A stretch of 64,000 nucleotides of DNA, from contig MHGF01000028.1 of the NCBI GenBank assembly GCA_001805445.1, forward strand, positions 73,651-137,650, read 5' to 3'. Of this stretch, positions 4,000 through 59,895 are shown one piece after another (the first letter of the stretch is position 1; each line of letters starts with the position of its first letter). The stretch comes from Omnitrophica WOR_2 bacterium GWF2_43_52 (GTDB lineage: Bacteria; Omnitrophota; Gorgyraeia; Gygaellales; UBA12090). The notes under the pieces were generated by a model, which worked only from the letters and a program-made list of their open reading frames with translations, did not search any database and was not told the DNA's origin. The position numbers were made by a program, and so were the translations under genes.

Positions 4000-4800
4000 T
4001 CAACTTTTTCTCCTGTTTATCCTTACTGATTTATCATTTTTCTTTGGCTTAAAATAACTTTTAAAATTTTCAAACAAGTCATCAGTAGACATATCCCGCG
4101 TCAGCCTGCCTCCATGGCACATAGAAATATCTCCGGTTTCTTCTGATACTGTGACAATGACCGCGTCTGTCTGCTCCGCTAAACCAATAGCCGCGCGATG
4201 GCGCGTGCCGAAAACACGGCTCAAATCCTGTTTTCCCGTGAGCGGGAAAAGGCACCCCGCGGCAACAACCCTGCCTTGCTGTATCACGATACCTCCATCG
4301 TGTAAAAGGCTGTTAGGAGTAAAAATTGTCTGCAATAATTCCGCACTAACCTTACTATCGATGGGAACTCCGGTTTCGACATACTCTTTAAGGCTTTCCT
4401 CCTTCTCCAGGGCAATTAATGCCCCCACCTTTTGCTTGCTCAAGATCTCCACAGCCTTAACAATCTCGCCGAGCATAGCATCAACCTCTTTTTCAGGAAT
4501 AACGGGTATGAAAACATTGTGCTGTCCTAAGCGGGCTAACCCTTGCCGTATTTCCGGCTGAAAAATAATCAGAAAACCGATAATGGAAATACCGAACAAA
4601 TGGGTGAGCAGCCAGTCTAAGGTCTCTAAACGCAGTATCTGGACAATAAAGAAAGCGAACACCAGGATAATAATGCCTCGCAGCACCTGAAGCGCCCGCG
4701 TTCCCTGAAAAAACAACATAATCCGATAGATCACAAACCAGAGAATAATAATCTCTAAGGTTATTTTCCAATTAAGGGTAATAGCGCCGATTGTTAGCAT
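4000..4800 (-). CDS. cdaA: Diadenylate cyclase (c-di-AMP synthase) with N-terminal 3-TM anchor
   Basis: DAC domain motifs (GALIAL, HDGGIVI, RHRAAIGLAEQTDAVIVTVSEETG); hydrophobic N-terminus. Confidence 0.85.
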   Translation of the reverse strand: MLTIGAITLNWKITLEIIILWFVIYRIMLFFQGTRALQVLRGIIILVFAFFIVQILRLETLDWLLTHLFGISIIGFLIIFQPEIRQGLARLGQHNVFIPVIPEKEVDAMLGEIVKAVEILSKQKVGALIALEKEESLKEYVETGVPIDSKVSAELLQTIFTPNSLLHDGGIVIQQGRVVAAGCLFPLTGKQDLSRVFGTRHRAAIGLAEQTDAVIVTVSEETGDISMCHGGRLTRDMSTDDLFENFKSYFKPKKNDKSVRINRRKS

Positions 4801-6020
4801 TCTAATAGAGTATCCAAAACAGCCATTGCCTTTTTTGTTTCCTTAACATCATGGACTCTTACTATGTGCGCGCCGTTTGTGACTGCAAAACAATTACTGC
4901 TGATTGTTCCCGCAAGCCTTTCCGATACCGGATCCCCGGTCAGTTTTCCGATAAATGACTTTCGCGATGTACCAATGACAATAGGCCTGCCCAGGCTTTT
5001 GAGCTGGCTCAACGATTTAAGAATAGCGATAGTATGGTCGAGGGTCTTGCCAAAGCCTATCCCGGGGTCAATCACAATTTTTTTAAAATCAATCCCCGCG
5101 CTAAGGCAGGCCATTATGGCATTCCGCAAATAACCGGTAACTTCTTCCATCACGTTGTGATAGACAGGCTCAACCTGCATAGTCCGAGGCTTTCCTTTCA
5201 TATGCATAAGCACGACTGCCGCTTTATGGCGCTTAATTACTTTTGCCATCAGGGAATCGGCGCTTAATGCGGTAATATCATTGATGATGTCGGCGCCATT
5301 GGCTAACGCTTGACTGGCCACCTCAGATTTATACGTATCGATGGAAAGAGGGATCTTGACCTTTTTTCTTATTTTTTTTAAAACAGGAATCAATCGCTGT
5401 AATTCTTCTTTTACGCTCACCGGCTTCGCGCCGGGCCGTGAAGACTCTGCTCCTACATCAAGAATATCAGCGCCTTCATCCACTAACTTCTGGGCGTAGT
5501 CTGTTATATAATTTAAATCTGGTGACGTGGTGACGTGGTGACGTGGTGACGTAAACAACCCATCACCGCTAAAAGAATCAGGAGTAAGATTCACGATACC
5601 CATAATATGGGTACGAGAACTCAAATTGAGCCGATAGCTGCCTGCTTCCAAGATAAAACCATCATAATGGTAATAGGCAAGCGCGCGCTGAAGTTCAACC
5701 GACACCTGGCTTAATTTATACGGCTGGCGCTTGAGCTTCTCACATAGCTTTCTAAAATGCAACAAGGTGCCAATAATAATGCAATCGGTATGCTTGATTT
5801 TTCCCGTCATAGCGTTGCGGGAAACCGCGGTATCGGCACCTAAAGAAAGCGTTTCCTGCTTTAAGATATGTGCGGCAAAGATAGGGAGTTTGCGAATCCT
5901 GACTAAATGAACAACGGTTTTAGGGGCCATAATCTCGATACCCGTAGGATCAACCCCTAATTCCCGCATCAGCTTTTGCGCTTCTTTTTGATTACGGCAG
6001 GAAAGGATGCTAATATTCAT
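4794..6020 (-). CDS. folP: Dihydropteroate synthase with ~125-aa N-terminal extension of unknown function
   Basis: MGIVNLTPDSFSGDG...VGAESSRPGA pterin-binding motifs start at about residue 130; 408 aa total. Confidence 0.85.
   Translation of the reverse strand: MNISILSCRNQKEAQKLMRELGVDPTGIEIMAPKTVVHLVRIRKLPIFAAHILKQETLSLGADTAVSRNAMTGKIKHTDCIIIGTLLHFRKLCEKLKRQPYKLSQVSVELQRALAYYHYDGFILEAGSYRLNLSSRTHIMGIVNLTPDSFSGDGLFTSPRHHVTTSPDLNYITDYAQKLVDEGADILDVGAESSRPGAKPVSVKEELQRLIPVLKKIRKKVKIPLSIDTYKSEVASQALANGADIINDITALSADSLMAKVIKRHKAAVVLMHMKGKPRTMQVEPVYHNVMEEVTGYLRNAIMACLSAGIDFKKIVIDPGIGFGKTLDHTIAILKSLSQLKSLGRPIVIGTSRKSFIGKLTGDPVSERLAGTISSNCFAVTNGAHIVRVHDVKETKKAMAVLDTLLEC
5521..5552. repeat. Octamer tandem repeat GGTGACGT x4 inside folP coding sequence (encodes TSPRHHVTTSP loop)
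   Basis: Seen directly; ORF stays open through it. Confidence 0.8.
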
Positions 6021-9876: not shown

Positions 9877-10719
9877 TTACTTCTTTCTGTAGGCATCAAG
9901 ATAGGAATCACAATAAATATGCTTATTCAATACCAAATCCGAGGTAATCGCGCTATCTACAAGCTCCTTATCCAAGGGATCAAGAATTGCCGCGTCCAGG
10001 CCAAATCCGACTGCCATAATCAGGAAGGTTCTGTTGACCAAGCTTCGCTGGCAGGTACCTTGCGAAACATTGCTTAAGCCCACCACTGTTTGAGGCGCGG
10101 GATCTGAAATTATTTTAAAATCATGGATTGATTCTAGAATATCCCTCATCTGTGACTGAGCCACATTGACCGGCATAACTATCGGGTCGAGATATAAATC
10201 CTCTATAGGAAAACCTTTCTCCTGCGCGAAAGCCACAATGCCTGCCGCTAGTTCTAGGCGCTGATCCTTATTCTGCGGAATCCCTTTTTTGCTGATGGTC
10301 AGGCCAATAAGCTTAGCGTTATAACGCAGCGCAAGAGGAACTAACCCTTCAAGCTTTTCCTCATCAGCAGTAGTAGAATTGATAATTGCCTTACCCTTTA
10401 AGACCTTTAATCCCGCCTCAACAACCGCGGGCCTGCTGGAATCAATGGCAATAGTCTTATCCGTTACCTCCTGAATAGTAGTAATCAACCATTGGATATC
10501 ATTCACCGGATCCTTCGATGCCGGGCCGCAGTTTACGTCAAGCGCGTCCGCCCCGGCCTTTATCTGGTCAAGGGCCTTTTGTTGAATAACGCCTTTGTCC
10601 TTGGTTTGAATGGCTTTTCCAATGTCCTTATACATTCCATTAATTAATTCACCGATTATAAACATCGCCTCACTCCTCTTGTAATAGCCAATAACTTCGG
10701 GTCGATAGTCTATGGTCAA
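9877..10719 (-). CDS. acsE: Methyltetrahydrofolate:corrinoid/iron-sulfur protein methyltransferase (pterin-binding, AcsE-like)
   Basis: DHPS-like pterin-binding barrel motifs (IIGELIN, DALDVN); size and context match acsE. Confidence 0.7.
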   Translation of the reverse strand: MTIDYRPEVIGYYKRSEAMFIIGELINGMYKDIGKAIQTKDKGVIQQKALDQIKAGADALDVNCGPASKDPVNDIQWLITTIQEVTDKTIAIDSSRPAVVEAGLKVLKGKAIINSTTADEEKLEGLVPLALRYNAKLIGLTISKKGIPQNKDQRLELAAGIVAFAQEKGFPIEDLYLDPIVMPVNVAQSQMRDILESIHDFKIISDPAPQTVVGLSNVSQGTCQRSLVNRTFLIMAVGFGLDAAILDPLDKELVDSAITSDLVLNKHIYCDSYLDAYRKK

Positions 10720-10770
10720 TAGTCTATAGTTTACGTTTTCTATTGACTATCGGCCATAGGCCATAGACCC
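10697..10770. repeat. Intergenic imperfect palindrome built from GATAGTC/ATGGTC units (family also at 18741-18830, 37331-37365, 56578-56695)
   Basis: GGGTCGATAGTCTATGGTCAATAGTCTATAG ... CTATTGACTATCGGCCATAGGCCATAGACCC. Confidence 0.7.
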
Positions 10771-10783
10771 ACGTTATTTTTTC

Positions 10784-11749
10784 CTATCCCCTCATTAATT
10801 CATCAATATGGTTCCTGACTAATTCCGCGCTTTTAGGATGCCTCATTACCATAATATTGGCTCCCGACTGCAAAAACGCCGTAGCCGTAAGCGCCTCCCA
10901 GGTAACACCTCTGTCTAATTCAGCGCCCCAACTGGGAAATTCAGAAACAAGGGCCTTTGCCTCTTTTGCCCTCCAGGCTTCATACCCTACAAAACAGATA
11001 AAAGGCATTGCCAGCATCTTATCTCCCGAGAGTGCCGCCAAACGCGCCCTTTCCATAATCGAATACGCGTATTCTAGCCCATAGCCTAACGCCCCTACCG
11101 TAGGATTAATGGCGATACGCTCATGCGGCAGGCTCATATCGGTAATAAGAATATTAAGCTGTTTAGCGATATTGATATCGATGGGCGACTGGGCGATAAT
11201 ACTATGGCCATCTGCCAACACACTCGCGGTAAGTGTTTTATAATTATCCTGAACCACTTCACCGATTAAAATCTTTTCTCCTTTTGCCGCCTGAGAGCAT
11301 CGGGGAAGAACCTCATTATCCCGTTTATCTTCACCGCACCCAACTAAAATCAAGGGGATGGTAGTTACCTTTAAAACATCAATAACTACTTTGACTAAGT
11401 GGTCAACGGGCTTATTCTGGGCATCAGGGTGCGCGCCCGCGAGCCGAAGGCACAGCAGGTCTGCCTTAAATTCTTTTTCACACTTTATCGCCCACTCGAC
11501 GGGGTTTTTGATGGCGCTGCCGAGTGCCGAGGTAAGCGTCAAAGGCCAGTCATCAGGAGGAGTGTCTAAAATTTCCATGGCAATGACCGGGCGATGGGGA
11601 ATTTTACCTTCACTAAATAAAAATGGCAGTGATTCCTCCCCTCCGCATTGTACAACCTTTTGTCGCGTTCCCCCTTCTTCTTTTATCGCGCCTATAGTTA
11701 ACGTACTTACCGCATTTGACCATTTTTCTTTTACCAACTCAAGCGCCAT
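10784..11749 (-). CDS. acsD: Corrinoid iron-sulfur protein small subunit (AcsD/CdhD-like)
   Basis: 321 aa TIM-barrel protein, length and neighbours (acsE, cooC, acsC) fit CFeSP small subunit. Confidence 0.7.
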   Translation of the reverse strand: MALELVKEKWSNAVSTLTIGAIKEEGGTRQKVVQCGGEESLPFLFSEGKIPHRPVIAMEILDTPPDDWPLTLTSALGSAIKNPVEWAIKCEKEFKADLLCLRLAGAHPDAQNKPVDHLVKVVIDVLKVTTIPLILVGCGEDKRDNEVLPRCSQAAKGEKILIGEVVQDNYKTLTASVLADGHSIIAQSPIDINIAKQLNILITDMSLPHERIAINPTVGALGYGLEYAYSIMERARLAALSGDKMLAMPFICFVGYEAWRAKEAKALVSEFPSWGAELDRGVTWEALTATAFLQSGANIMVMRHPKSAELVRNHIDELMRG

Positions 11750-11789
11750 AATAATCCTCCCCCTCGTATATTATGTGTAATTAGCTATG

Positions 11790-11930
11790 TTAATTGAGAG
11801 AATCAGGTAATAGGGGAATCAGGATTTGATAATCAGGGTATCAGGATATTGGGGACAAAATATCAATATTTTCCTAATCCCCTGATTTCCCAATCCCCAA
11901 ATCCTAATTCCCTGATACCCTGATATCCGC
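11790..11930. repeat. Large dyad element: purine-rich arm of GGGGAATCAGG/GGATATTGGGG units, A/T core, then complementary pyrimidine-rich arm; copy 1 of 3
   Basis: Seen directly; related copies at 39945-40080 and 55925-56075; shared right end AATATCCGCTTTTA. Confidence 0.7.
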
Positions 11931-11951
11931 TTTTAACATGTTGCAAACCCA

Positions 11952-12701
11952 CTATCTAGCTAAAATTTTCTCAAGTATCTTCTTAACTTCTACAAACGCC
12001 TTTGATGATTCTTCTAAATCCGTTATAGATTTACCCTGGCGGCTTAAATTCAGCAGATTCTCATCCTCGGGGATTACCCCCGCGATTTCCACTCCTAATT
12101 CCTGTATCTTATCGCTTAGTATAATGCTATGAGTACGGTTTAAGATCAACGCTATATTCTTGATGTCTATTTCTAATTCCTTGACCAACGCAATAATCCT
12201 TTTTGCCGCCCGTAAGCCTGCCTCTGAAGAATCTGAAACCAGAAGCAGCCTATCCGCCCGGCGCATCGTTTTACGGGATAAATGTTCAAAGCCAGCCTCA
12301 TTATCGAGCACGATATAATCGTAATCATCAGCGATATTTTTAATCAGGGTACGTAACAGATTATTCACATAACAATAACAACCCGGGCCCTCAGGCCTTC
12401 CCATAGTCAGGATATCAAAACCGTCATTCTCTACGATACTGGTCTGAATACGGTAATCGATAAACCTATCCTTACTCATACCTACAGGCACAAGCCCCGG
12501 ATTCTTAGCGATTGCGTCAACAATACTCCCTATATCTTCTTTTACCTTTAAGCCTAATGCCTCGGCAAGGTTACTGTTGGGGTCAGCGTCAATACCCAGC
12601 ACTGAGCCAATGCCACGCCCAGCAAGCATATTCACTAAAAGCGATGACACTGTTGTCTTTCCTGTTCCGCCTTTTCCCGCTACTGCTATTATAAAACTCA
12701 T
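11952..12701 (-). CDS. cooC: CooC/AcsF-type nickel-insertion ATPase (MinD/ParA fold)
   Basis: Deviant Walker A AVAGKGGTGKTT; ~250 aa; embedded in CFeSP/ACS gene set. Confidence 0.75.
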   Translation of the reverse strand: MSFIIAVAGKGGTGKTTVSSLLVNMLAGRGIGSVLGIDADPNSNLAEALGLKVKEDIGSIVDAIAKNPGLVPVGMSKDRFIDYRIQTSIVENDGFDILTMGRPEGPGCYCYVNNLLRTLIKNIADDYDYIVLDNEAGFEHLSRKTMRRADRLLLVSDSSEAGLRAAKRIIALVKELEIDIKNIALILNRTHSIILSDKIQELGVEIAGVIPEDENLLNLSRQGKSITDLEESSKAFVEVKKILEKILAR

Positions 12702-12781
12702 TTTTAGCCTATAGAGCGTAGAGCCTATAGAGTATAGGTACAGCTTACTTCTATACCCTAAAAAACTATTCGCTCCTTCCC

Positions 12782-14716
12782 CTAAAATCTTACATTTGGA
12801 AACTTTGCCAAATCCGTATGCGGGAAAAATAATGCCGCCACATACTCATCCATATAGTTAGGCTCAACCGAAAGCTCAAAATACGTCAACTGCTTGGCAA
12901 TGGCATCCGCGTCAAAAAGCGCGTCGTGAGAAAGGATAATCTCTCTCGCCCCTATCAGAGAGCTATTGCCGACGAAAAAAAATTTTCCGCTCGGCAAATC
13001 CGGAAGCAAACCTATAGCGATGGCATTGGCCATATCCACCGAAGTGCCGAATCCGCCGGCGATAAATACCTGCTCCAAGTTATCAAAGGATAAATCCATA
13101 TGGCGTACCAGCATTGAGCTTGCCGCGTAGATTGCCCCCTTTGCCCTTTTCAGATTCTCTATATCCATCTCATTAATCACAATATCGCCTGTAGTACCCA
13201 CATCTTCCTTAAAAGCGATAACAAACTCTTTGCCGTATTCACCATCGCGGATACGCTTATGTATAAGTGAGCCGTTTATTTTTCCGCTTCGGTCAATTAT
13301 TCCCGCGCGTAAAAGCTCTGTGATAATATCAATGTACCCGGAACCGCAAATCCCCGAGGCTGCTACCTTCATTATCGTTTCATACTGAACATCAAATGTC
13401 GCAGGGTCAATTTTGACTTTTTGGATGGCGCCTTTTGACGCCCGCATGCCGCAAGTAACTCCGCTTCCTTCAAAACACGGGCCGGCGGAGGCGGCAGCTG
13501 AAATCAACCAGTCTTTATTGCCTAAGACTATTTCCCCGTTTGTGCCGATATCAATAAGCAGGCTTAGTTTTTCTGTCTTATCCATGCCGCAGGCAAGGAC
13601 ACCCGCGGTAATATCCCCTCCCACATAGCTTGAGACCCCCGGCACACAGCCAAGCAGGCCTCTGGGGTTGAGCTTGATACCGGCCTCTGCCGCGCGTATT
13701 ACCGGTACAAAATTCGCCGTCGGCACATACGGCTCGCGGCGGATGTAGGTTGGGTCAACCTTAAGGAGAAGATGTATCATCGTGGTATTTCCGGCGCAGA
13801 CACAACAGGTCACATCATTTAAATCTATAGCATGTTCCACAGTCAATTCCTGAATCATCCTGTTCATTTCATCAATAACCACATGGTGCAGCTTTTCCAA
13901 GCCATCGGGTTCATGGGCAAAAATAATCCGGGTAATGACGTCCGCGCCATAACTTGCCTGTTTATTAAAGGCGGCCTTGGTGCCTAAGATTTTTTTTGAG
14001 TTTAAATCAATGAGCTGGCCGGAAATAGTAGTCGTCCCGATATCAAAGGCAAAACCGTAATTGCGGCCGGAGGTATCCCGTGGCTCAACAATGACAATTT
14101 CGGTTGTGCCGTTACGCTTGCCCAAGGTTACCGTAATCTCCCAATCACTGGTTCTTAAAAGCTCACCTAAGCGGCGGATATTGGCAATGCCTGTCTGAAG
14201 TACCGGGATATCCTGAAAAGCGCGTATTACCCGGTATATCCGTTCCAGGTCGCTTATCTTGTCATCCAAATTCGGTTTGGGCAGTTTTAAAAAAAGCTTG
14301 GTAGCAAGGGGCGAATGAATAAAAAACTCCTCGCTTACTACTGACTCACCCTTATCTACATCAACCGGCTCAGAGAATATCCCTTTAAGCCGAAGCATAT
14401 AGCTATCATCTTCAGAAATACTCCGGGAATCAAGGCGCGATTCTTTAGGAATCTCTACCTCTACATCGCTCTGGGCAACGCTCAGGCAAGAAAGATGATA
14501 CCCCTGCTTTCTTTCTTCAAGAGTAATCCTTCCCGTAGGCAGGCTTGCCACCTGCCCTTTTTTCACAATAACCTTGCACCTGCCGCAAACACCGTCTCCT
14601 CCGCAGCTGGAATTGATATGAATCCCCGCTGAGATAGCCGCGGAAAGGATAGTTGCCCCTTTTTCCACTTCAATTACCTTGTTATCCGGAAAAAACTGTA
14701 TTTTATATTTTTCCAT
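12782..14716 (-). CDS. Reductive activator of corrinoid iron-sulfur protein (RACo-like; N-terminal [2Fe-2S] ferredoxin + ASKHA ATPase)
   Basis: N-terminal plant-type ferredoxin Cys pattern (SCGGDGVCGRCKV...C), 644 aa, located between acsC and cooC. Confidence 0.75.
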   Translation of the reverse strand: MEKYKIQFFPDNKVIEVEKGATILSAAISAGIHINSSCGGDGVCGRCKVIVKKGQVASLPTGRITLEERKQGYHLSCLSVAQSDVEVEIPKESRLDSRSISEDDSYMLRLKGIFSEPVDVDKGESVVSEEFFIHSPLATKLFLKLPKPNLDDKISDLERIYRVIRAFQDIPVLQTGIANIRRLGELLRTSDWEITVTLGKRNGTTEIVIVEPRDTSGRNYGFAFDIGTTTISGQLIDLNSKKILGTKAAFNKQASYGADVITRIIFAHEPDGLEKLHHVVIDEMNRMIQELTVEHAIDLNDVTCCVCAGNTTMIHLLLKVDPTYIRREPYVPTANFVPVIRAAEAGIKLNPRGLLGCVPGVSSYVGGDITAGVLACGMDKTEKLSLLIDIGTNGEIVLGNKDWLISAAASAGPCFEGSGVTCGMRASKGAIQKVKIDPATFDVQYETIMKVAASGICGSGYIDIITELLRAGIIDRSGKINGSLIHKRIRDGEYGKEFVIAFKEDVGTTGDIVINEMDIENLKRAKGAIYAASSMLVRHMDLSFDNLEQVFIAGGFGTSVDMANAIAIGLLPDLPSGKFFFVGNSSLIGAREIILSHDALFDADAIAKQLTYFELSVEPNYMDEYVAALFFPHTDLAKFPNVRF

Positions 14717-14801
14717 ATTTACAGCTATAAGCTATCGGCTGAAGGCTTCCGCCGTAGGCGGATCCGCCTTCGGCGAGGATAGCCAACAACCAAATTATTT
14801 C

Positions 14802-16136
14802 CTATGATAAATTTTTAAGAAACGTGGGTATTCCTGCCGCTTCCTTCGGCCCTACCACGATTTTCCAGCCGCTTTTTTCCTCTAAATCACCACTCATAAC
14901 CGCTACGTATCCGGGAATAATGAGATTGCGGTGTTTCAGCTTCTCTTCCACCCCTGATTTCTTCAGGCTCTCCGCTATTTTCTCGGGAGTGAATTTCTCC
15001 GCTGCCCAGGCAGTCAAAACCGACATACCTTCAGTATTCACGCTTAAGATATACGTCGGTACCTTACTAGCCTCTACCTCACCTAAGACGGTATAATAGG
15101 TGAGTGAAAAATTCGTCGTCACTAATGCCGGAGAATTTTCCGTAGTATTGCCTATCGCATAGAGCTTTGATTCTATTTGTAGTGGTTTTTGCGGGTCGGT
15201 ATAAATATTCTGGCGAAGAGTAAGTAATGCCAAAACCGCCCATTCTTCAAAGGTGTTAAGCAAAATAATCCCGGCATATTTGGCGATATAATCCCCTGCC
15301 CTGATGACTTCCGCCTGCGAGGCAAGCTTATCCATGACGCACATCAAAGGATATCCTACAGCACGGTTTGCTTTTTTAAGCGCAAGCCTGCGTAGCTGCG
15401 TCATCTCTGCAATGACTTTAGCCTGCTGGTTTTTAGTATCAACATCAATGACAAGATCGAGAACGCCAAGTTCATTTGCCTTCTTAGTTAACTCCGGCAG
15501 GGTATCCCAGGATTCAGCCTTTATCGCAAGAGGGCTCGCGTTTTCTTTCGCCAAGGCGGATAGATCAGCGATAGTCTGGCTGTTTGCAGCGTACACAAGA
15601 GGCCTTTTGCCAGCCAAAATCTTTAAAGCACCAGCCAAAGCCTTGGTATCCTGGCTCATCAATACGATTCCTACGCTCGTTAGGCCGGAAATCAGCGTTA
15701 CAACATCAATAAACCTCTGCGTGTCTTTAGTCTGCTTTATGGCTATAAGGTCGGTTTTTAAATGCTGGCCAACACGCTCAAAATGAAGTTTCCCTATCTT
15801 CAGAAGGCGCTCTTTAATTTCGGTATCTAACAGGCTGTCTTCAATAATAAATCCGAGAGCCGCGGGATGGTGAAACTTCTCCTCATGGCGAAACATTACC
15901 GTTTCATTGCCTATCTCAGACTTATTTTTCTCATCACCGATTAAAGCCAGCCGTATGGGCGGCTGAGACTGGGCATCGAGCGCCTGTTTTGCCTCTTTGC
16001 TGACATAGGGGCACTTCTCTAAAGACACTGCTTTCTTTGCTAATGAAAGCGCGAAGGCAAGGCAGGTAGGGAACCCGCATTCACGGCAATTGGTCTTAGG
16101 AAGAAGCTTGTAAATATCCAATCCTGATAGTGCCAT
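14802..16136 (-). CDS. acsC: Corrinoid iron-sulfur protein large subunit (AcsC/CdhE-like)
   Basis: N-terminal [4Fe-4S] motif CRECGFPTCLAFA...CPY closely matches AcsC N-terminus; 444 aa. Confidence 0.8.
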   Translation of the reverse strand: MALSGLDIYKLLPKTNCRECGFPTCLAFALSLAKKAVSLEKCPYVSKEAKQALDAQSQPPIRLALIGDEKNKSEIGNETVMFRHEEKFHHPAALGFIIEDSLLDTEIKERLLKIGKLHFERVGQHLKTDLIAIKQTKDTQRFIDVVTLISGLTSVGIVLMSQDTKALAGALKILAGKRPLVYAANSQTIADLSALAKENASPLAIKAESWDTLPELTKKANELGVLDLVIDVDTKNQQAKVIAEMTQLRRLALKKANRAVGYPLMCVMDKLASQAEVIRAGDYIAKYAGIILLNTFEEWAVLALLTLRQNIYTDPQKPLQIESKLYAIGNTTENSPALVTTNFSLTYYTVLGEVEASKVPTYILSVNTEGMSVLTAWAAEKFTPEKIAESLKKSGVEEKLKHRNLIIPGYVAVMSGDLEEKSGWKIVVGPKEAAGIPTFLKNLS

Positions 16137-18740: not shown

Positions 18741-18830
18741 AATTTAGGGTCGATGGTCGATAGTCAATGGTCAATAACGCAAGGAACCATATGCTATCGA
18801 CCATAGACCATAGACTATAGACTATAAACC
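18741..18830. repeat. Intergenic palindromic repeat (GATAGTC/ATGGTC family)
   Basis: GGGTCGATGGTCGATAGTCAATGGTCAATA ... CTATCGACCATAGACCATAGACTATAGACTATAAACCC. Confidence 0.7.
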
Positions 18831-18861: not shown

Positions 18862-19860
18862 TTATGAAAGTTCAGGGCCAAGATAATAATTTGAACGTTT
18901 CCCTCTCTTATACAACTGGTACCCCAACCCCGCGATCATCGCCGCGTTATCCAGGCTCAAGGCAAAATCCGGGAAAAACACATCCACATTCTTGAGGCGC
19001 GCTTCTTCCTCCATACGGCTTCTTAAATAACTGTTTGCCGCGACCCCTCCTCCCACTACCAGAGTCGCGATCTTCCTGCGCTCACAAGCAAGAAGCGACT
19101 TTTCGACTAATGCCTCCACCACCGTCTTCTGAAAACTCGCCGCCAAATCTTTATTTGTGACCTTGTGGCCTTGTGACCTTGTGACTTGATAAAGAACCGC
19201 GGTCTTTATACCGCTAAAAGAAAACCCAAGATCATCCGAAGTGCCGCAGGAAAGCTTTACACTCTCTGGATTGCCCTGCCTTGCCATTTTTTCAATCACC
19301 GGGCCGCCAGGATAGCCTAAGTCCAAAATCTTAGCCACCTTATCAAAGGCTTCACCGGCGGCATCGTCAGCGGTTTGGCTTATACCTTTAAAATCGAAAT
19401 CCTTACTTATTAAAAACAAGCTGGTATGCCCGCCGGAAACGACCAGCCCAACGCACGGTAACGCAGGGAAACCACAGCCTTGTTTTTTATCTTTGGCCAG
19501 GAAACTCGCGTACAAATGCGCCTCAAGATGATCAACGCCAACCAAAGTTTTCTTTGTAGCGAAACTCAGCGCCTTAGCAAACGATATGCCTACCAAAAGC
19601 GAACCCACTAACCCCGGGCCCTTGGTCACGCACACGAGCCCTATATCGGTTATCTTTTTCCGCGCTTTTCTAAGCGCGTCTTTGACTACAAGTGACAGAG
19701 ACTCAATATGGGCGCGGGAAGCAATCTCCGGAATTATCCCTTTGTATTTCTGATGTAACCTTAGGCTGGAGGAAACTACATTTGAAAGCACATATCTGCC
19801 GTTTTCTACCACTGCCGCGGAGGTTTCGTCACAGGATGTTTCAATACCAAGGATTATCAT
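18862..19860 (-). CDS. tsaD: tRNA N6-adenosine threonylcarbamoyltransferase
   Basis: MIILGIETSCDETSAAVV and downstream Kae1/TsaD motifs. Confidence 0.9.
   Translation of the reverse strand: MIILGIETSCDETSAAVVENGRYVLSNVVSSSLRLHQKYKGIIPEIASRAHIESLSLVVKDALRKARKKITDIGLVCVTKGPGLVGSLLVGISFAKALSFATKKTLVGVDHLEAHLYASFLAKDKKQGCGFPALPCVGLVVSGGHTSLFLISKDFDFKGISQTADDAAGEAFDKVAKILDLGYPGGPVIEKMARQGNPESVKLSCGTSDDLGFSFSGIKTAVLYQVTRSQGHKVTNKDLAASFQKTVVEALVEKSLLACERRKIATLVVGGGVAANSYLRSRMEEEARLKNVDVFFPDFALSLDNAAMIAGLGYQLYKRGKRSNYYLGPELS
19156..19188. repeat. Octamer tandem repeat TGTGACCT-like x4 inside tsaD (encodes VTRSQGHKVT loop)
   Basis: TGTGACCTTGTGGCCTTGTGACCTTGTGACTTG seen directly; ORF intact. Confidence 0.75.
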
Positions 19861-22531: not shown

Positions 22532-23962
22532 TCACGGATTTTTCACTTTTAATTTTTCTCTCAAAACATCCTGGGCCACTTTAGGATTTGCCTTACCTTT
22601 ACTTGCCTTCATTACCTGTCCTACTAAAAACATAAAGGCATTGCCTTTACCCGAGGTATAATCCCCTACGGACTTGGCATTTTCCGCGATCACCCTATCC
22701 ACAATCCCTTCAAGTTCTTGAGTATCTGAAACCTGCAGTAAATCTTTTTCCTTAACAATTACCTCCACAGGCTTGCCGCTGTTACACATCTGAGCCAAAA
22801 CCTCTTTTGCCGCCAAATTATTAAGTTTACCCTCTTCAACAAACTGCAACAAGGAAGATAGCGCCTGCGGAGTAAAAAGAAGAGATTCAATACTACTGTT
22901 ACGCGCGTTCAGCTCATAGCTTAAAGGGCCAATACACCAATTACAGACAATCTTGGCCTTAGGATAAAATTTAACCGTATCTTCAAAAAATTTGGCGAAT
23001 GCCTTCTCAGCAGCCAGAATCCCCGCATCGTAAGCGCTCAATCCATAGTCTGAAACGAACCGCTTTTTGAGTGCCTCAGGTAGTTCCGGAAGCGAATCCC
23101 TCAAGGCTTTTATTACGGAATCCTGTATAGTAAGCGGCGGTAAATCCGGCTCTGGGAAATAGCGGTAATCCATTGCCTCTTCTTTACTGCGCATAGAAAC
23201 AGTCTTTCCCGCAACCTCATCCCAGAGGCGGGTTTCCTGCAGAATAGGCTTTTGCGCTTCTAAAGATTCCGTTTGCCTTTTTATTTCATAGGTAAGGGAG
23301 TCCCGCACTGCCTTAAACGAATTCAAATTCTTCAATTCCGCTTTTGTCCCTAATTCTTGCACGCCATGTTTACGCAAGGAAATATTGGCATCGCACCTGA
23401 GCGAGCCCTTCTCCATATCGCAATCGCAGACCTCCAAATATTTGAGAATAGATTTTAATGATGTCAGATACTCATAGGCTTCTTCAGGAGAAGAGATATC
23501 CGGTTCGCTTACAATTTCAAGAAGAGGAATCCCCGCGCGGTTATAATCCACCAAACTACAGCCCTCCTGGTGAATCAGCTTACCCGCGTCTTCTTCCAGA
23601 TGCGCCCTCCGGATACCGATAGATTTCTTTTTTTCTTTAAGTTCTATGGTTAAAAATCCCTGAAGCGCCAGTGGCAGGCCGTACTGCGATATCTGATAGC
23701 CTTTCGGTAAGTCGGGATAGAAATAGTTCTTGCGGTCAAACTTAGTAAATTTTTGAATCTGGCAATGAAGCGCTAAGCCTACCTTAATCCCGTATTCCAG
23801 AGCCTTTTCGTTTAAAACCGGCAAACTCCCCGGAAACCCCAAACACACAGGACAGGCCTGGGTATTTGCCTCTTTACCAAATCCAGTCATACACCCGCAA
23901 AAGGCCTTGGTCTGGGTCTTTAATTGCGCGTGGACTTCTAAACCTATAACGGCTTCGTACAT
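22532..23962 (-). CDS. gatB: Asp/Glu-tRNA(Asn/Gln) amidotransferase subunit B
   Basis: MYEAVIGLEVHAQLKTQTKAFCGC start; gatCAB order. Confidence 0.95.
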   Translation of the reverse strand: MYEAVIGLEVHAQLKTQTKAFCGCMTGFGKEANTQACPVCLGFPGSLPVLNEKALEYGIKVGLALHCQIQKFTKFDRKNYFYPDLPKGYQISQYGLPLALQGFLTIELKEKKKSIGIRRAHLEEDAGKLIHQEGCSLVDYNRAGIPLLEIVSEPDISSPEEAYEYLTSLKSILKYLEVCDCDMEKGSLRCDANISLRKHGVQELGTKAELKNLNSFKAVRDSLTYEIKRQTESLEAQKPILQETRLWDEVAGKTVSMRSKEEAMDYRYFPEPDLPPLTIQDSVIKALRDSLPELPEALKKRFVSDYGLSAYDAGILAAEKAFAKFFEDTVKFYPKAKIVCNWCIGPLSYELNARNSSIESLLFTPQALSSLLQFVEEGKLNNLAAKEVLAQMCNSGKPVEVIVKEKDLLQVSDTQELEGIVDRVIAENAKSVGDYTSGKGNAFMFLVGQVMKASKGKANPKVAQDVLREKLKVKNP

Positions 23963-24040
23963 AAGTAGTAAGTAGTAAGTAGTAAGTAGTAAGTAGACAA
24001 CAGACTGCCTACTATCTACTCCCTACTTACTACTTCTTAG
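23962..24040. repeat. Heptamer tandem repeat AGTAGTA x~5 followed by inverted partial copy
   Basis: Seen directly between gatA and gatB. Confidence 0.8.
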
Positions 24041-25485
24041 ATCTTTGGTTTTTCCTTATGCCAGGGAGTACTTTGCTCGTAGGCATGCGCCACTTTTAAA
24101 AGCATTTCCTCATCAAAGGCTTTCGCGATAATCTGTAAACCAACAGGTAATCCTGCCTTACTCAAACCGCAGGGAACAGAGATTGCCGGAATCCCCGCGA
24201 GATTGACTGAAATCGTATAAATATCCGATAAATACATGGCTAAAGGATTCTGCGTCTTTTCCCCTATGGCAAATGCCGGCGTGGGAGAAGTGGGGGTTAC
24301 GATACAATCACACTCTTTAAAGACATTCGCGAAATCATTGGCAATCAACGCCCTGACTTTCAATGCCCTCAGATAATAAGCCTCATAATAACCGTGGGAG
24401 AGCACATACGTTCCCAGAATAATCCTCCGCTTGGCTTCATAGCCAAACCCGCTGTCGCGTGTTTTTTCATACATATCATGAAGGCTCACGGCACCCTTGT
24501 GCCTAAGCCCATACTGGACTCCGTCAAAACGCTCCAGGTTAGAACTCGCCTCCGCGGTAGCAATGATATAATATACCGGCACCGCGTATGCTGAATGCGG
24601 CAGGCTTACCTCCTTTACCTGGGCACCCAATTTCTTTAGTTGAAGAATGGCTTCTTCTACGCATTGCTTGACTTCGGGGTCTATTCCGGTAAGTTGATTT
24701 TCTTTTGAGAGGGCAAAATATTCTTTAGGAACGCCTATTTTTAAACCCCTGATATCCTTTCCCAGAGATTGCGTATAGTCTGGAACACCGGTATTTACCG
24801 AGGTAGCATCACAGCGGTCATGGCCGGCAATCAGTTTTAAAAGCAGGGCGCTGTCTTGAACATCTTTGGTTATAGGCCCTATCTGGTCAAGGCTTGAGGC
24901 AAAGGCAATCAAACCATAGCGGGATACGCGGCCATAGGTAGGCTTGAGCCCAACCACACCGCAGAATGATGCCGGCTGGCGTATGGAACCTCCGGTATCA
25001 GAACCCAGCGCCCAAAAGGCCTCGTCCGCGGCAACCGCGGAGGCGGAGCCTCCGGAAGAACCTCCGGGAACACACGCCAGGTTCCAGGGATTACGGGTGG
25101 GGAAATAACAGGAATTCTCGCAGGAAGAGCCAAAGGCAAACTCATCCATATTGGTTTGGCCATAGATACCGCAACCAGCCTCTTTGAGTTTACGAATTAC
25201 CGTAGCGTCATAGGGCGGACGAAATCCCTCCAGAATCTTTGAGGCACAGCTCGTCAGTTGGCCCTGAATGCAAATATTGTCTTTAACCGCGATGGGAAGG
25301 CAATATGAGTCAGCGGGTGCGCGGGTGTGCGGGTGCGCGGGTTTTTCTACCCGGACGAATGCCTTGACCTTAACCTCAACATCTTCTATTCTTTTTTTGA
25401 GGCTGGCTAAAATTTCTTCTTGAGTTGTCTCCTTGCTCTTTAATTTTTCCAGCAGCTCATGGGCAGTCAATTGATGGATTTCCAT
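24037..25485 (-). CDS. gatA: Glu-tRNA(Gln) amidotransferase subunit A (amidase signature)
   Basis: Amidase signature GGSSGGSA..., 482 aa. Confidence 0.95.
25313..25342. repeat. Octamer tandem repeat GCGGGTGY x~3.75 inside gatA (encodes HPHTRAPA)
   Basis: GCGGGTGCGCGGGTGTGCGGGTGCGCGGGT seen directly. Confidence 0.75.
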
Positions 25486-37330: not shown

Positions 37331-37365
37331 TTTAGTCAATAGTCTATAGTCAATGGCTTATAGCC
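37331..37365. repeat. Short palindromic repeat of the GATAGTC/ATGGTC family
   Basis: TTTAGTCAATAGTCTATAGTCAATGGCTTATAGCC. Confidence 0.6.
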
Positions 37366-43646: not shown

Positions 43647-43649
43647 TTT

Positions 43650-43715
43650 CAGCTATCAGCTATCAGCTATCAGCTATCAGCTGAACGCTGAAAGCCGACA
43701 TCTGAAAGCTGTCAA
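43650..43715. repeat. Heptamer tandem repeat CAGCTAT x4 followed by GCTGAA-rich segment
   Basis: Seen directly between ruvA and ruvC. Confidence 0.8.
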
Positions 43716-44194: not shown

Positions 44195-44240
44195 TCTCAG
44201 CTCTCAACTCTCAGCTCTCAGCTGAAGGCTGACAGCTTCT
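44195..44240. repeat. Heptamer tandem repeat TCTCAGC x~4
   Basis: Seen directly between ruvC and yebC. Confidence 0.75.
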
Positions 44241-45276: not shown

Positions 45277-48200
45277 TTAATTATAGAGCATATCCGGCGC
45301 AAGCAAGGCGCGACGAAGCTCAGGGCTGCTTTCTTTGCCCGCAAGCTCCTCAAGCCTGCAGGCATCACTGAGAGTAATGATGATATCCTGAAGCCTTCCC
45401 TGCAATTCATCCCTCTGATAGCAGGCCGCGATAAACTCAAGGATGCGTAAACCATTGGGGATAATCCCTGCCTTCATGGTTGCCTGAATCTGGCTGAACT
45501 CATTATCAAGGTCTATCAGCTCTGCGTCGCGTAGTACGGGCAAATCTAGATTCAATCCCGCAAAACTCCCCCTTCGCTCAAGCGTAGTGGCGTCATTCAT
45601 TATTGTATCCCTAAAGTCCAATCCGCCGCGCTTTTCTCCACGAAAAGAGGTTTCTGTATCCAACGATAGAGCGCTTGAACTCTCCGCGAAGGCACTCGCT
45701 GCGATACTCGCAAAGCCTAGACTAAAACTAATTATTGTATATTTTTCTCTCGGCAGCTCATATCCTGTGTCCCTACCGAGGAAAATCCTTGTAATCCGTA
45801 TAGCCTCCCTTAAAAAATCCACTTTAAAGCTTAAGGCTTCCTTGGAAATATGCTCCTTGAGCCATTCCTCCTCTTCAGGGCGGAAATAGTTTCCTTCTTT
45901 TATTTTTTCAAAGAAATGTTCAAGCCTGTCATTATTCTGCGTAAGCTCTTGCTCCACTTTCTCGTCAAGCTCTAGTTCCACCTTAAGAGCCATTACAGAA
46001 AAATATTCTTTCATTACTTTGAGCAAAAATTCATCCCTTTCTTGCATCTGAACATCTTTTTCTATTTCTTCACTCTTCATTTCCTTGACCCAAGAGGCTA
46101 AAAAGTCCCCTCTCGTATTTCTGCCATCAACAGACGTTAAACCATCAACTAAACTGATAATAGCTTTATTCTCCGCGTAGCGCGCGTTATCAGCAAGCTT
46201 TTCAGTTATCACTTGTTTTAACGCGTCAACCATTATAAATCCTGCTTTTTCTCCGTACGCGCCCAAAACATCAATAATCACATCTTTCTGGCATTTAAGA
46301 AGCGGCGGGGCTACCGATAGATAAGGAGCGGATAAGATTTCAGAAACGCCCGTTTTTTTCTGCCAATTTTTTACTATAGCTTCGGCTTGGACATACTCTA
46401 CACGTATCAACTCGCCTTTCTTTTCTAGCCTTTTCTTACCCAATAATTCATTCAACCAATTGAGTACGTCGTTATTTTTTGAGGTATACTCACTATTTAT
46501 TATTACAGGCTCTTTGTCCTTAGCAGCTTCTAATAGCTCGCTCATCCCGGCAATTATTAACGCCTTATTTATATCCAATGTTTTTCCATTGACATTAGTA
46601 ATTATTCGCGCTTTCTTCTCTAAAACAAGCACCCCCACTACTCTATCCCCTGCCCCTAAGGCAATACGTATCCTGTCCGATTTTTCACCCGATAGATAAG
46701 CTACGGTAACTTCCCGATTATCAAATGTGTAAAGCTCAACAGGCCTTTCCAATGTCGTAAGGACAAAATTCATAGCATTCTCGGCAGAGGCATAATGAAA
46801 TTTATACGGCCTTTTGTGAATAGGTACCGATAAAGTCCTCCAGGTCAGCGGTGAGGCGGAATAGGCTTTCAGTGGCGACGATACCTGGGATTGTTCCCAA
46901 TAATACCTTATCACCTTCAGCATCCCCTCTTTTACTTTCCTCGTTTCTGGAGTGCCGATAACTATACCAACCTTAGGCCAATCAAACCGGGCATCCTTAA
47001 AAAATTCCATAAAACTCCCCAGCGGTTCAAGCCCCGTCTCTTTATTCTCGGCTTTCCAATTCATCCCTATAGTTAAAATTTTATTCTTCTTCGCTCCTTG
47101 TCTAAGTGCCGCCTCTACAAAGGGAGTAAGTGCCACAACTGTTTTCGCGGACTTACCCAAAATCGCCCCATCTACAGAAGACAGGCCAAGTATCTCATCA
47201 GCATTCTGCGCGGTTAAGCCTCCTACAAAATAAACATCAAGATCAATGTGCAAGGCTTTCTTGAGTGCGTTTTTTATGACGGAATGCTCTTTTTCAATCT
47301 GCTCTCTTTCACGAACCTTTTCTTTAGGCAATTCGCGCGGTTCATAGGCAATCCTTAAGCCAATGGCACCTGCGTCCTCTGCCGTTATCCCTTCTAGAAT
47401 TTCCGCTATATCTTTCTCAAGAATCTCATTAGTCTTTCCTTGTTCCCTCTGCCAGGATACTTCACCAAGAAAAAGAATAGTTCGCTTTATCGGATGGTTC
47501 TTCGCAAAAATAACAGTTTTCTTCAACTGTAGATTCGTTATTGTGTTTGCAACATAACGGGCCTTAGCTGCCAAGCTTATAGCATTGAGGCCTACATAAG
47601 TATTGCTCTTAAGAGAAAGGCTTTCAATCCCTTCAAGATTTACCCCTTCTGCTTCTAACGTTTTTCTCCATTTTTCATCTCTTTTTGCTTCAGTTTTATA
47701 TTCCGGATTATTGAATATATTACCCAAAGCGTTTTCAATCCTTTCCTCAATCTCTTTTCTCCATTCCGGATGATTAGCAATGATCCCGTCTAATAAACTG
47801 GCATTGCCAATATTAGTCCGCCCAGTACGCGATCCCTCTGGAAGTGATATAGTATTAGCCACGACAAGAAAATTATCCCTTATTCCGAGCGGCAAGGCAG
47901 AGGGCTTCCTCCCTAACGCCTTATTTTTGACATCAACGCCTTCAAGCTCCTGAAGCGCTGACTTTGTTCCATCTGCGGCTGTTCCCTTCAGGACAAACGC
48001 GCGAATCTCTTCAGAAAGGCGAATGAATCTAAATCCCAATTCAACATCGTGCAATGTATTCTGAGCTATTGAGCTTAATTTATTTGCCGCGGAAACAAAA
48101 TCATTGTTATAGAAATATCCTTTCAGTTCTCTTTTATCTTCTTCGTCTAAATAATTCTTACGCTCTAATTGGGCAACAAACCTATTTATTTCGCTTTCAT

Positions 48201-56577: not shown

Positions 56578-56695
56578 GTCTATGGTCTCAGCCGTAAGCT
56601 GATCCGCCTGAGGCGGAGATGGTCAATAGTCAATGGGCAGTAAGGGGAAAACTATGGGCTATCGACCATAGGCTATAGACTATCGACCCTTACTT
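56578..56695. repeat. Palindromic repeat (GATAGTC/ATGGTC family) with internal CCGCCTGAGGCGG hairpin
   Basis: Seen directly. Confidence 0.65.
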
Positions 56696-59079: not shown

Positions 59080-59895
59080 TCAGGGTAAATCAAATCTCAT
59101 TCCATCATAAGCAGCAATCACCTCTGTATGCAATTCATTCGATAATTCTTGCGCTAACACATGCGGCTTATGGGCAAGCATAGTCATTCCGAAATGAGTC
59201 AAAATCGCGGCCTCTGGCTTAATCTTTTTGATAATTTCCTTCGCGTCTATGAAGCTTAAATGCTCAACTCCCGGGCGCTCCTCATAGAAAACCACATTGA
59301 TAATCACGATGTCCGCCTTGTAAATATCTTCTATGCCCGCGAAATATTTCGTGTCGGTTATCAAAGAAACTGTTTTTTTAAAGTCAAATCGTAAACCGTA
59401 GGTTGCCACCGGATGCTTTTGACGGGAAGGCGCGCTAAAGGCAATCTCTCCAACAGTATACGTTTTCTTTTCATCCAGAATTTCAATTCTTTCTACCACC
59501 GGGCGTAAATGCCTTAATATTACCGGCTCATCTTCCATCGCGTCCGCTGGCAGAAAGACCACCCCTCTCTTTTTAAAACCGCCTTCGGTCATTGCCTCAA
59601 TCATCACATTCACGTCGTTAGAATGGTCGAGGTGGCGGTGGGTAAGGATAATGCCGTCTAACTGGGTGGGATCCATCTTTGGCCTACTCAGCGCGCAACG
59701 CGCGATGCTCCCCGGGCCAGGGTCAATAATCACATTCGTCCCTTTATAAGAAACCCAGATACCCCCTGAGGAACGCAACTGCTTAATCATCACAAACCGC
59801 GCCCCCGCCGTCCCCAGGAATTTAATATAATTTCCCTTTTCTTTAGTGGCGGCCTTGTGACGTGGTGACCTTGTGACTTTTTTTATTTCAGCCAT
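59080..59895 (-). CDS. MBL-fold metallo-hydrolase
   Basis: HRHLDHSND zinc motif. Confidence 0.75.
   Translation of the reverse strand: MAEIKKVTRSPRHKAATKEKGNYIKFLGTAGARFVMIKQLRSSGGIWVSYKGTNVIIDPGPGSIARCALSRPKMDPTQLDGIILTHRHLDHSNDVNVMIEAMTEGGFKKRGVVFLPADAMEDEPVILRHLRPVVERIEILDEKKTYTVGEIAFSAPSRQKHPVATYGLRFDFKKTVSLITDTKYFAGIEDIYKADIVIINVVFYEERPGVEHLSFIDAKEIIKKIKPEAAILTHFGMTMLAHKPHVLAQELSNELHTEVIAAYDGMRFDLP
59854..59877. repeat. Octamer tandem repeat CTTGTGAC/GTGGTGAC x3 at the 5' end of the MBL gene (encodes KVTRSPRH)
   Basis: Seen directly. Confidence 0.75.

Follow-up and report, generated by a model that had tools for sequence, protein, structure and literature searches.

Simple-sequence repeats with units of 5–11 nt have been described from prokaryotes, with a preference for heptamers and with slippage as the attributed cause (Mrazek 2007, as far as it is relayed in PMC4679880). 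A heptamer that contains stop codons in one orientation sits within open reading frames (ORFs) only in the other, where it is translated into a peptide with a period of seven residues (MacGregor 2015, PMC4679880; see also PMC4692102), and in the genomes of Borgs all repeat units within ORFs have lengths divisible by three (Schoelmerich et al. 2023, PMC9879509). Here we describe tandem arrays of 8-nt units that are read in frame within five genes of Omnitrophica WOR_2 GWF2_43_52, an uncultured groundwater member of the Omnitrophota, in a 64,000-nt stretch of its DNA (hereafter the window; G+C content of ~45%). These arrays belong to a known class, the non-triplet simple-sequence repeats tolerated in frame, and we consider it probable, at roughly 0.7, that they are lineage-wide repeats of 7–8 nt made by slippage and filtered by selection.

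Using Tandem Repeats Finder (TRF) and direct reading of the DNA, we located three to six tandem 8-nt units in each of five minus-strand ORFs, namely folP, tsaD, gatA, a gene for a protein of 1500 aa and a gene for an MBL-fold protein. Every array lies fully within one long ORF and all five ORFs are open; the host proteins match the Pfam models DHPS/Pterin_bind, TsaD, amidase/GatA, a TIM-like segment (in the 1500-aa protein) and Lactamase_B_2, and we found no functional link among the five genes. TRF matches are 90–100% in four arrays and 76% in that of the MBL gene, at 3.1–6.0 copies. The folP array (5520-5552, minus strand; TRF TGGTGACG x4.1, 100% matches) reads as ACGTCACC x4 on the coding strand and encodes TSPRHHVTTSP, residues 157–167 of a 408-aa DHPS (ORF 4794-6020). 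In tsaD (ORF 18862-19860), the array at 19155-19186 (minus strand; TRF TTGTGACC x3.9) is composed of four GGTCACAA-type units on the coding strand, with one G-to-A variant and an imperfect last unit, and encodes QVTRSQGHKVT, residues 225–235. The 1500-aa gene (ORF 45277-49779) carries six units of AGGTCACC/ACGTCACC at 49510-49557 (minus strand; TRF GGTGACCT x6.0), which encode RSPGHQVTTSPGHQVT, and a solitary ACGTCACC unit at 49477-49486 (minus strand) that lies beyond a small hairpin, so that the hairpin is inside the array. The array of the MBL gene (59846-59877, minus strand; ORF 59080-59895) consists of GTCACAAG GTCACCAC GTCACAAG, called by TRF as x3.1 at 59853-59877, and a degenerate fourth unit, GCCGCCAC, at 59846-59853; its peptide, KVTRSPRHKAA, forms residues 6–16. 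These four arrays have a GTCAC core in common on the coding strand. The exception is gatA (ORF 24037-25485), in which the array at 25313-25342 (minus strand; TRF GCGGGTGC x3.8) repeats GCACCCGC x3.8 on the coding strand, a unit without sequence kinship to the GTCAC family, and encodes a 12-residue peptide. An earlier note on this DNA, made from the sequence alone, had recognized three to six tandem octamers in frame in the five ORFs; TRF, direct reading and the translations bear it out, and the peptides that it quoted are the exact translations of the arrays. Its assignment of all five arrays to one octamer family holds for the four genes with GTCAC and fails for gatA, and its account lacked both the intergenic heptamer arrays and the hairpin nested in the array of the 1500-aa gene, which are described below.

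The arrays are real, with a chance expectation of about zero. The word GTGACNNNGTGAC occurs 11 times in the window compared with 0.00 expected from 100 dinucleotide shuffles, and exact tandem runs in the window are in excess at periods 7, 8 and 14 only. At least 24 contigs from JGI, ENA, NCBI and Logan, produced by different assemblers, encode the identical 408-aa FolP with its repeat, and all five proteins are also recorded in the sister metagenome-assembled genomes (MAGs) GWA2_44_7, GWC2_44_8 and RIFOXYC2_FULL_43_9; the longest contig spans 223,611 nt. A contig from a separate sample (L129; Logan SRR22388306), with folP at 90% DNA identity, has the same four-unit folP array, ACGTCACC x4.

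The positions of the arrays in the proteins differ in their relation to known structures. Relative to the DHPS of B. anthracis (PDB 1tws), the folP array adds 10 residues, inserted between loop 1 (DSFSDGG) and helix alpha-1. In the AlphaFold2 model of FolP, which has a mean predicted local distance difference test (pLDDT) score of 87, residues 157–167 are coil, with pLDDT <50 at residues 160–164 and a helix from residue 169, and the array peptide is predicted to be a disordered coil. The tsaD array is no insertion and is instead a native loop whose DNA has turned repetitive: it aligns with the native T. maritima TsaD segment 'yflqrekgykv' with the addition of only two residues, and in the AlphaFold2 model of TsaD (pLDDT 92.6) it forms the end of helix 216–228 and the loop 229–235. 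Measured against the syntenic GatA proteins of two other Omnitrophota loci (L127 and L128), GatA has exactly 8 aa (24 nt, three units) more, in agreement with the expectation in the earlier note that an 8-nt unit is gained or lost only in threes, and it is no longer than GatA of Aquifex, the N-terminal segment of this protein being variable. The view that the arrays are 8-aa loop insertions is therefore sound for folP, at 10 aa relative to solved DHPS, and for gatA relative to L127 and L128, and does not apply to tsaD or to gatA relative to Aquifex. A relative of the 1500-aa protein (P0025) has a shorter linker and no repeat, and, among relatives of the MBL-fold protein, P0030 and P0036 have no repeat and three others have the variant RVTRSQGHHVTG.

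Three further observations concern the host proteins. In two GatA variants of the window's 90% cluster (P0016 and P0017), both alanines of the array peptide are replaced by valine (KPVHPHTRVPAD), the two replacements lying 8 residues (three units) apart; judged from the protein sequences, this paired change could have come about through concerted change of the array or through two CpG transitions. FolP has an N-terminal extension of ~130 aa (residues 1–130) that is kept in Omnitrophota orthologues, is a folded alpha/beta domain in the prediction (pLDDT 70–95) and is absent from the matching solved DHPS structures. The central region of the 1500-aa protein matches the C-terminal half of triosephosphate isomerase (Pfam TIM, residues 751–888, E = 1.7e-11), and its hydrophobic N-terminus appears signal-like by eye.

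We aligned 65 TsaD and 120 FolP orthologues of 55–90% identity, nearly all of them unnamed or from Omnitrophota. At the same folP and tsaD positions, many Omnitrophota orthologues of 55–86% identity hold 7-/8-nt arrays with other units, and their loop peptides include KVHSPQSTVH, KTQDTRHKTQ, TKDERRKTKD and KVTRAQGHKST in TsaD and KSQKSKVKSQ, KAQSSKLKAQ and RTENRGQRTE in FolP. A period of 7 (at least three matches) is found in 15 of 65 TsaD loops and 30 of 105 FolP loops, compared with 1.3% and 3.7% of control segments from the same proteins. At the DNA level, tsaD of L128 contains AGTCCAC x2.6 followed by AGTCTAT x2.3, tsaD of L127 contains AGGTTAC/AGGTCAC units, folP of L228 contains a perfect AAAGTCA x4.4, folP of L229 contains TATCGGG units, and a carbohydrate-kinase gene of L229 contains GTGTCAAG x3.9. 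The unit sequences and the peptides differ between orthologues, and all that is kept is periodicity and position; many orthologues, such as the group around P0189, have a minimal FolP loop without a repeat. Given the periodicity at the same loops in many orthologues, the phenomenon is phylum-wide with heptamers as the rule, and the octamers are a peculiarity of the GWF2_43_52 genome and a few others.

Octamers with the reverse-complementary core, GTGAC, also occur in other phyla. When we searched one genome per species for runs of four GTGAC octamers, for which ~1 match is expected by chance by our own arithmetic, at least 120 genome stretches were returned, and the matches listed include Chloroflexota, Planctomycetota, Cyanobacteria, Bacteroidota, Omnitrophota, Actinomycetota and others. 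In the DnaE of Anaerolineae (L044 and L107), a GTCAC octamer array is in frame in the C-terminal linker and encodes peptides of the SPSHPVTQ/SPCHLVTL type, and in the loci of an Omnitrophota DnaE (L076) and an aconitase-like protein (L110) the octamers are located on the sense strand immediately upstream of the start codons. In GC-rich genomes, many of the long ORFs that span GTGAC arrays (L012, L016, L024, L028, L033 and others) resemble spurious antisense frames, and these were excluded from the in-gene cases. The suggestion of a genome-specific element thus has to be abandoned, since 7-/8-nt arrays occupy the same folP and tsaD positions in many Omnitrophota and GTGAC octamers extend across phyla. 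The presence and absence of the arrays among orthologues, which the earlier note took as informative about insertion, vary by gene: close relatives have the 1500-aa and MBL genes without arrays, and the folP and tsaD loops are repeat-encoded across the phylum.

The window also contains 14 intergenic arrays in the short spacers between co-directional genes. Cyanobacterial short tandemly repeated repetitive (STRR) heptamers form short intergenic arrays like those here. A 7- or 14-nt period is found in 11 of the 14 intergenic arrays and an 8-nt period in seven of the eight in-ORF arrays of the window; a 7-nt array is in frame in the 1500-aa gene (49029-49059, minus strand; CTCCAGT-like units x4.4, peptide LQSPVASHQ). 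The intergenic units include GGTCAAT, GACCATA, TAAGTAG, TCAGCTA, TCTCAGC and ACTATAG. A perfect TAAGTAG x5 (23962-23996) fills the 74 nt that separate gatA from the next gene, a perfect TCAGCTA x4.9 (43649-43682) lies in a 71-nt spacer, and similar heptamer arrays (7/14-nt) are in the spacers at 10700-10727, 18748-18830, 24004-24034, 37333-37363, 44195-44223 and 56651-56687. The TAAGTAG array ends at the start of ORF 22532-23962, and some arrays abut the next start codon.

Strand and frame account for the kind of unit that is found in genes. All clear in-ORF units are stop-free in every phase on the gene strand and encode the residues S, P, T, G, H, Q, R, K and V. On the gene strand, 9 of the 14 intergenic units contain a stop, and four of the five that are stop-free would give peptides rich in hydrophobic or aromatic residues (YGLWPMA, LLTTYYL), the fifth giving YQGIRVSG. 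Because GGTGAC always yields TGA in one phase, GTCAC must be the sense strand, and the encoded peptides are therefore alike with no need for a shared protein function. Three successive non-triplet units are read in three frames, with the result that the period of the peptide equals the length of the unit, 7 or 8 aa.

A second small repeat is nested in these arrays. In the 1500-aa gene, the six units are followed by a GC-rich hairpin of 24 nt with a 7-bp stem (CCCCGACGCTTCGGTCGGGGCAGG; 49487-49510, minus strand), which is read in frame as PDASVGAG, and then by one more unit. These 24 nt also interrupt the tsaD array of L127 (L127 6402-6425) and the folP array of L129 (about 530-553), where they are read as PRRFGRGR; between folP of the window (empty) and that of L129 (filled), at 90% DNA identity, no other indel is present. 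Exact copies of the hairpin's 22-nt core number 102 in 98 metagenome stretches, in addition to those in the window, L127 and L129. Among the 72 copies outside a larger repeat, 36 are in open frames of at least 150 aa and 21 in open frames of 80–149 aa, these frames being defined by length alone. Copies are read in all six phases, as PDASVGAG, PTLRSGQ (PTLRSGQA), PRRFGRGR, PAPTEASG, LPRPKRRG and ACPDRSVG. From these comparisons, the 24-nt hairpin appears to be a mobile element that is carried in frame by its host genes. About a third of the copies are inside the larger repeat, which is conserved and dispersed (ggctaaagtacc...cccggtgcttgccc-hairpin-atcgggtaac...ggctccttcgct) and is present in L177, L179, L188 (two copies each), L147, L133, L134 and others, with more than one copy per contig in some. 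The larger repeat was considered as a known RNA and matched no Rfam family at threshold; it may be an element resembling the MITEs (miniature transposable elements with inverted repeats) or an unknown structured RNA.

We also considered whether the hairpin targets the arrays and found no support for this: of 94 metagenome copies with enough flanking sequence, none is in a 7/8-nt array and none has flanking direct repeats. Because no copy among the 94 is in an array, the three nested cases are best read as a coincidence at permissive loops. Other small inserts are found at such loops. The TATCGGG array in folP of L229 is split by a different palindrome of 41 nt, CCTGCC...GGCAGG (L229 10460-10535), which is read as LPAACLPDRQGRQG, and related small palindromic inserts in the loops of TsaD and FolP orthologues include ACRQAG, SPCLPAGRK, PACPAGRQ and PRLRSGQA.

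Some features of the array alleles bear on how the arrays change. In a relative with 94% DNA identity in the MBL gene (L230), the array has four intact units with a one-register shift at the same total length, and the two genes have mismatches at 13 of 75 positions in the first 75 nt, which contain the array, compared with 37 of 741 elsewhere, a 3.5-fold higher rate; at the level of sequence, this pattern suggests one unit gained and another lost. Phase variation was examined and rejected, as no out-of-frame or length variants were found and the sole truncated TsaD has its deletion outside the array. This TsaD (P0009/L231, JGI Ga0208953_1028811) has lost 28 nt upstream of the unchanged array, at a GGTT microhomology; the deletion falls within window positions 19190-19230 and breaks the frame of a tsaD allele that is otherwise 100% identical, and L231 may represent an uncommon defective allele or a fault of assembly.

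The anatomy of the arrays, their constraints of strand and frame, the pattern among orthologues and the location in loops are direct results; from them we infer that slippage is the generating step and that the encoded peptides are neutral. Strand slippage or misalignment at replication or repair would make and turn over arrays of 7–8 nt, and four filters would determine which of them persist in genes. The coding strand would have to be stop-free in all phases; the frame would be kept only by net changes of three units or by a compensated gain and loss; units would be kept only if they encode small hydrophilic residues, those listed above for the in-ORF units; and only sites tolerant of flexible segments would be used, such as the junction of loop 1 and alpha-1 in FolP, the inter-helix loop in TsaD, the variable N-terminal segment in GatA, a linker and an N-terminal tail. 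Once a permissive loop had acquired an array, it would stay repeat-encoded in the long term, with the unit drifting and being re-homogenized, and such loops would also take up other small in-frame inserts, for example the 24-nt hairpin.

Several observations weigh against an origin by slippage and selective filtering. No copy-number polymorphism was found among the members of the species-level clusters, in which all full-length variants are equal in length, or among the 24 contigs, and no assembly examined contains an allele put out of frame by its number of units. The arrays are thus not visibly hypermutable, given the lack of copy-number polymorphism at the species level; the earlier description of the repeats as slippage-prone is plausible, but at the population level no copy-number variant bears it out, and the only change seen is the register shift of constant length in L230, at 94% DNA identity. 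Two folP alleles that diverge at 10% of their other positions have identical arrays. In the window, in-ORF arrays are nearly all of 8-nt units and intergenic arrays of 7-nt units, a split that a selective filter leaves unexplained. Finally, GTCAC in four of the five arrays together with GTGAC across phyla could point to a sequence-directed process in place of blind slippage.

This last point is the starting point for the alternative that the GTCAC arrays are pre-formed or sequence-directed insertions, in the form of a tiny mobile or enzyme-installed cassette, with no local slippage, which we regard as unlikely. In addition to one unit family in four unrelated genes within 64 kb and the at least 120 genome stretches with GTGAC octamer arrays in many phyla, such cassettes would fit the array-free MBL and 1500-aa genes of close relatives and the occurrence of what looks like a truly mobile 24-nt element alongside the arrays. 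However, orthologous positions use many units with both 7- and 8-nt periods, as expected for drift in situ, the arrays have no terminal repeats, conserved flanks or target duplications, and gatA repeats an unrelated unit; that GTCAC recurs may itself mirror no more than the scarcity of octamers that combine freedom from stops in every phase with tolerable encoded residues. It is decidedly unlikely that the arrays are functional, either as a His/Ser/Pro-rich linker or modification site or through a GUCACC motif (similar to the 3' tail of 16S rRNA) or protein-binding site that tunes expression, given that the units and peptides are unconserved among orthologues beyond periodicity and position, that many orthologues have the minimal repeat-free loop (the FolP group around P0189), that the segments are predicted as coil with low or moderate confidence and that the five host genes are functionally unconnected. 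A function would nevertheless explain why the folP and tsaD loops are repeat-encoded at the same position down to ~55% identity and why the folP array is perfectly kept between 10%-diverged alleles, and the octamers of other phyla that are often on the sense strand just before start codons (L076, L110) recall the regulatory role proposed for TAACTGA repeats (PMC4679880).

The nested hairpin invites the idea that the arrays are footprints of its cycles of insertion and excision, each of which leaves a 7–8-nt target duplication. Unit lengths of 7–8 nt are common among target-site duplications, the hairpin lies exactly between array units in three genes, and the folP heptamer array of L229 is split by another palindrome. 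We nonetheless rejected this explanation as very improbable, since the flanks of the hairpin have no direct repeats, none of the other 94 copies is in a 7/8-nt array, and most arrays, including all of the intergenic ones, are hairpin-free. Short perfect repeats are sometimes mis-assembled, and an assembly or chimera artefact was the objection that the earlier note itself raised; its probability is practically negligible, considering that the identical sequence is shared by several named MAGs and by at least 24 contigs, which different assemblers produced and different archives store, that the 90%-identical relative from another sample also carries the array, and that the five ORFs are open. 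Lineage-wide slippage filtered by selection remains our preferred explanation of the arrays. A more far-reaching proposal, which we put forward as conceivable but doubtful, is that an active, sequence-directed process, in place of blind slippage, seeds and maintains 7–8-nt arrays with a GTC/GTCAC core at permissive sites of essential genes, is coupled to the 24-nt hairpin, which could integrate between array units, and operates in Omnitrophota and possibly other phyla; if true, array and hairpin together would constitute a class of miniature mobile DNA not described before, one that steadily remodels the surface loops of core enzymes.

The surroundings of the arrays have other distinctive features. 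With a single exception, the ORFs of at least 150 aa that we treated as genes are encoded by the minus strand, a bias that is extreme over 64 kb; the other plus-strand ORFs are few and overlap minus-strand genes, and the GC skew of the plus strand is uniformly negative over the window (1-64000). A Wood-Ljungdahl cluster (~9877-16136) adjoins folP and is syntenic in L001, L127, L228 and L229; its members are CdhD-like, a second Pterin_bind protein (methyltransferase-like), RACo, a CbiA/ParA-like ATPase and a CdhD/FeS protein. In L228, another Omnitrophota contig, a perfect tandem repeat of 44 nt x3.2 (L228 7103-7241) is located directly upstream of folP.

Our analyses suggest that non-triplet repeats can persist for a long time in essential genes where strand, phase and site permit, and that they can supply loop variation steadily. 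Peptides of low complexity in proteins of uncultured bacteria, among them SPRHHVT, SQGHKVT and PDASVGAG, are to be read as footprints of repeats and hairpins, and neither as functional motifs nor as assembly errors; these peptides can distort alignments, orthologue clustering and structure prediction. The array-bearing loops also flag permissive insertion sites in FolP and TsaD, and the phylum-wide recurrence together with the nested hairpin provides a tractable data set on the birth and movement of very small repeats.

In our searches of the literature, we found no description of these repeats in Omnitrophota or of octanucleotide arrays like these, and the unit sequences themselves matched nothing but primers. 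Among described systems, phase-variable contingency loci are similar in having non-triplet simple-sequence repeats within coding regions; however, the arrays described here are short with long units, both in-frame and out-of-frame alleles are a mark of such loci and only in-frame ones were found, and in place of surface, virulence or restriction-modification genes, the arrays are hosted by those for DHPS, TsaD, GatA, an MBL-fold protein and a large uncharacterized protein. For the hairpin, repetitive extragenic palindromes, which carry a GTAG or CGTC tag, and their associated RAYT transposases (REP/RAYT) fit poorly in their extragenic location, as many hairpin copies are seemingly intragenic in long open frames, and no transposase tied to the hairpin was identified in the 64-kb window, a genome-wide search not having been made. 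The hairpin has many palindromic copies, filled and empty sites and unbroken host ORFs, as selfish palindromes do. Elhai is said to have described, in 2008, cyanobacterial small dispersed repeats of 21–27 nt, to which the hairpin is similar. The Rickettsia palindromic elements (Ogata 2000, to the extent cited in PMC3184786) are likewise palindromic, dispersed, in frame within genes and present or absent between relatives, and differ from the hairpin as follows: they are about 105–146 nt and the hairpin is 24 nt, is read in all six phases and is hosted by Omnitrophota and other groundwater taxa.

The repeats of Borgs (PMC9879509) resemble the arrays as perfect nucleotide repeats that keep the frame, encode disordered hydrophilic segments, often occupy similar places in homologues and come from groundwater and sediment metagenomes, and they differ in unit length, given that the units described here are of 7–8 nt, not divisible by three, are read in three frames, form much shorter arrays of three to six units and belong to a bacterial chromosome. 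The TAACTGA repeats of Beggiatoaceae and cyanobacteria (PMC4679880) are similar in forming short intergenic arrays between co-directional genes and in following the stop-free-orientation rule within ORFs, and the taxa that contain them overlap those with GTGAC octamers (Cyanobacteria, Bacteroidota and Chloroflexota). Like TAACTGA and STRR repeats, those of the window are mostly intergenic (14 arrays) and have stop-free orientations in ORFs; unlike the 7-nt units of that family, the in-ORF units here are of 8 nt (ACGTCACC, GGTCACAA, AGGTCACC and GCACCCGC), the intergenic heptamers (GGTCAAT, TAAGTAG, TCAGCTA and others) differ from it in sequence, and whereas hypothetical proteins and the ends of proteins hold most in-ORF copies of Beggiatoa (PMC4679880), those described here are also in internal loops of FolP, TsaD and GatA. 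The long simple-sequence repeats (LSSRs) of prokaryotes (Mrazek 2007, as excerpted in PMC4679880) are alike in their head-to-tail, near-perfect 7–8-nt copies, their excess over chance, their mostly intergenic location, the heptamer preference of the lineage and slippage as the proposed origin, and the arrays of the window have the LSSR hallmarks of at least three tandem copies of a 5–11-nt unit at high identity and a frequency far above chance. Compared with the LSSRs portrayed in that excerpt, these arrays differ in that several are inside core housekeeping genes and in recurring at orthologous loops phylum-wide; no copy-number polymorphism was seen among the species-level cluster members and the 24 contigs. 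What they add to the known class is their persistence at orthologous loops across a phylum and the nested, apparently mobile hairpin of 24 nt.

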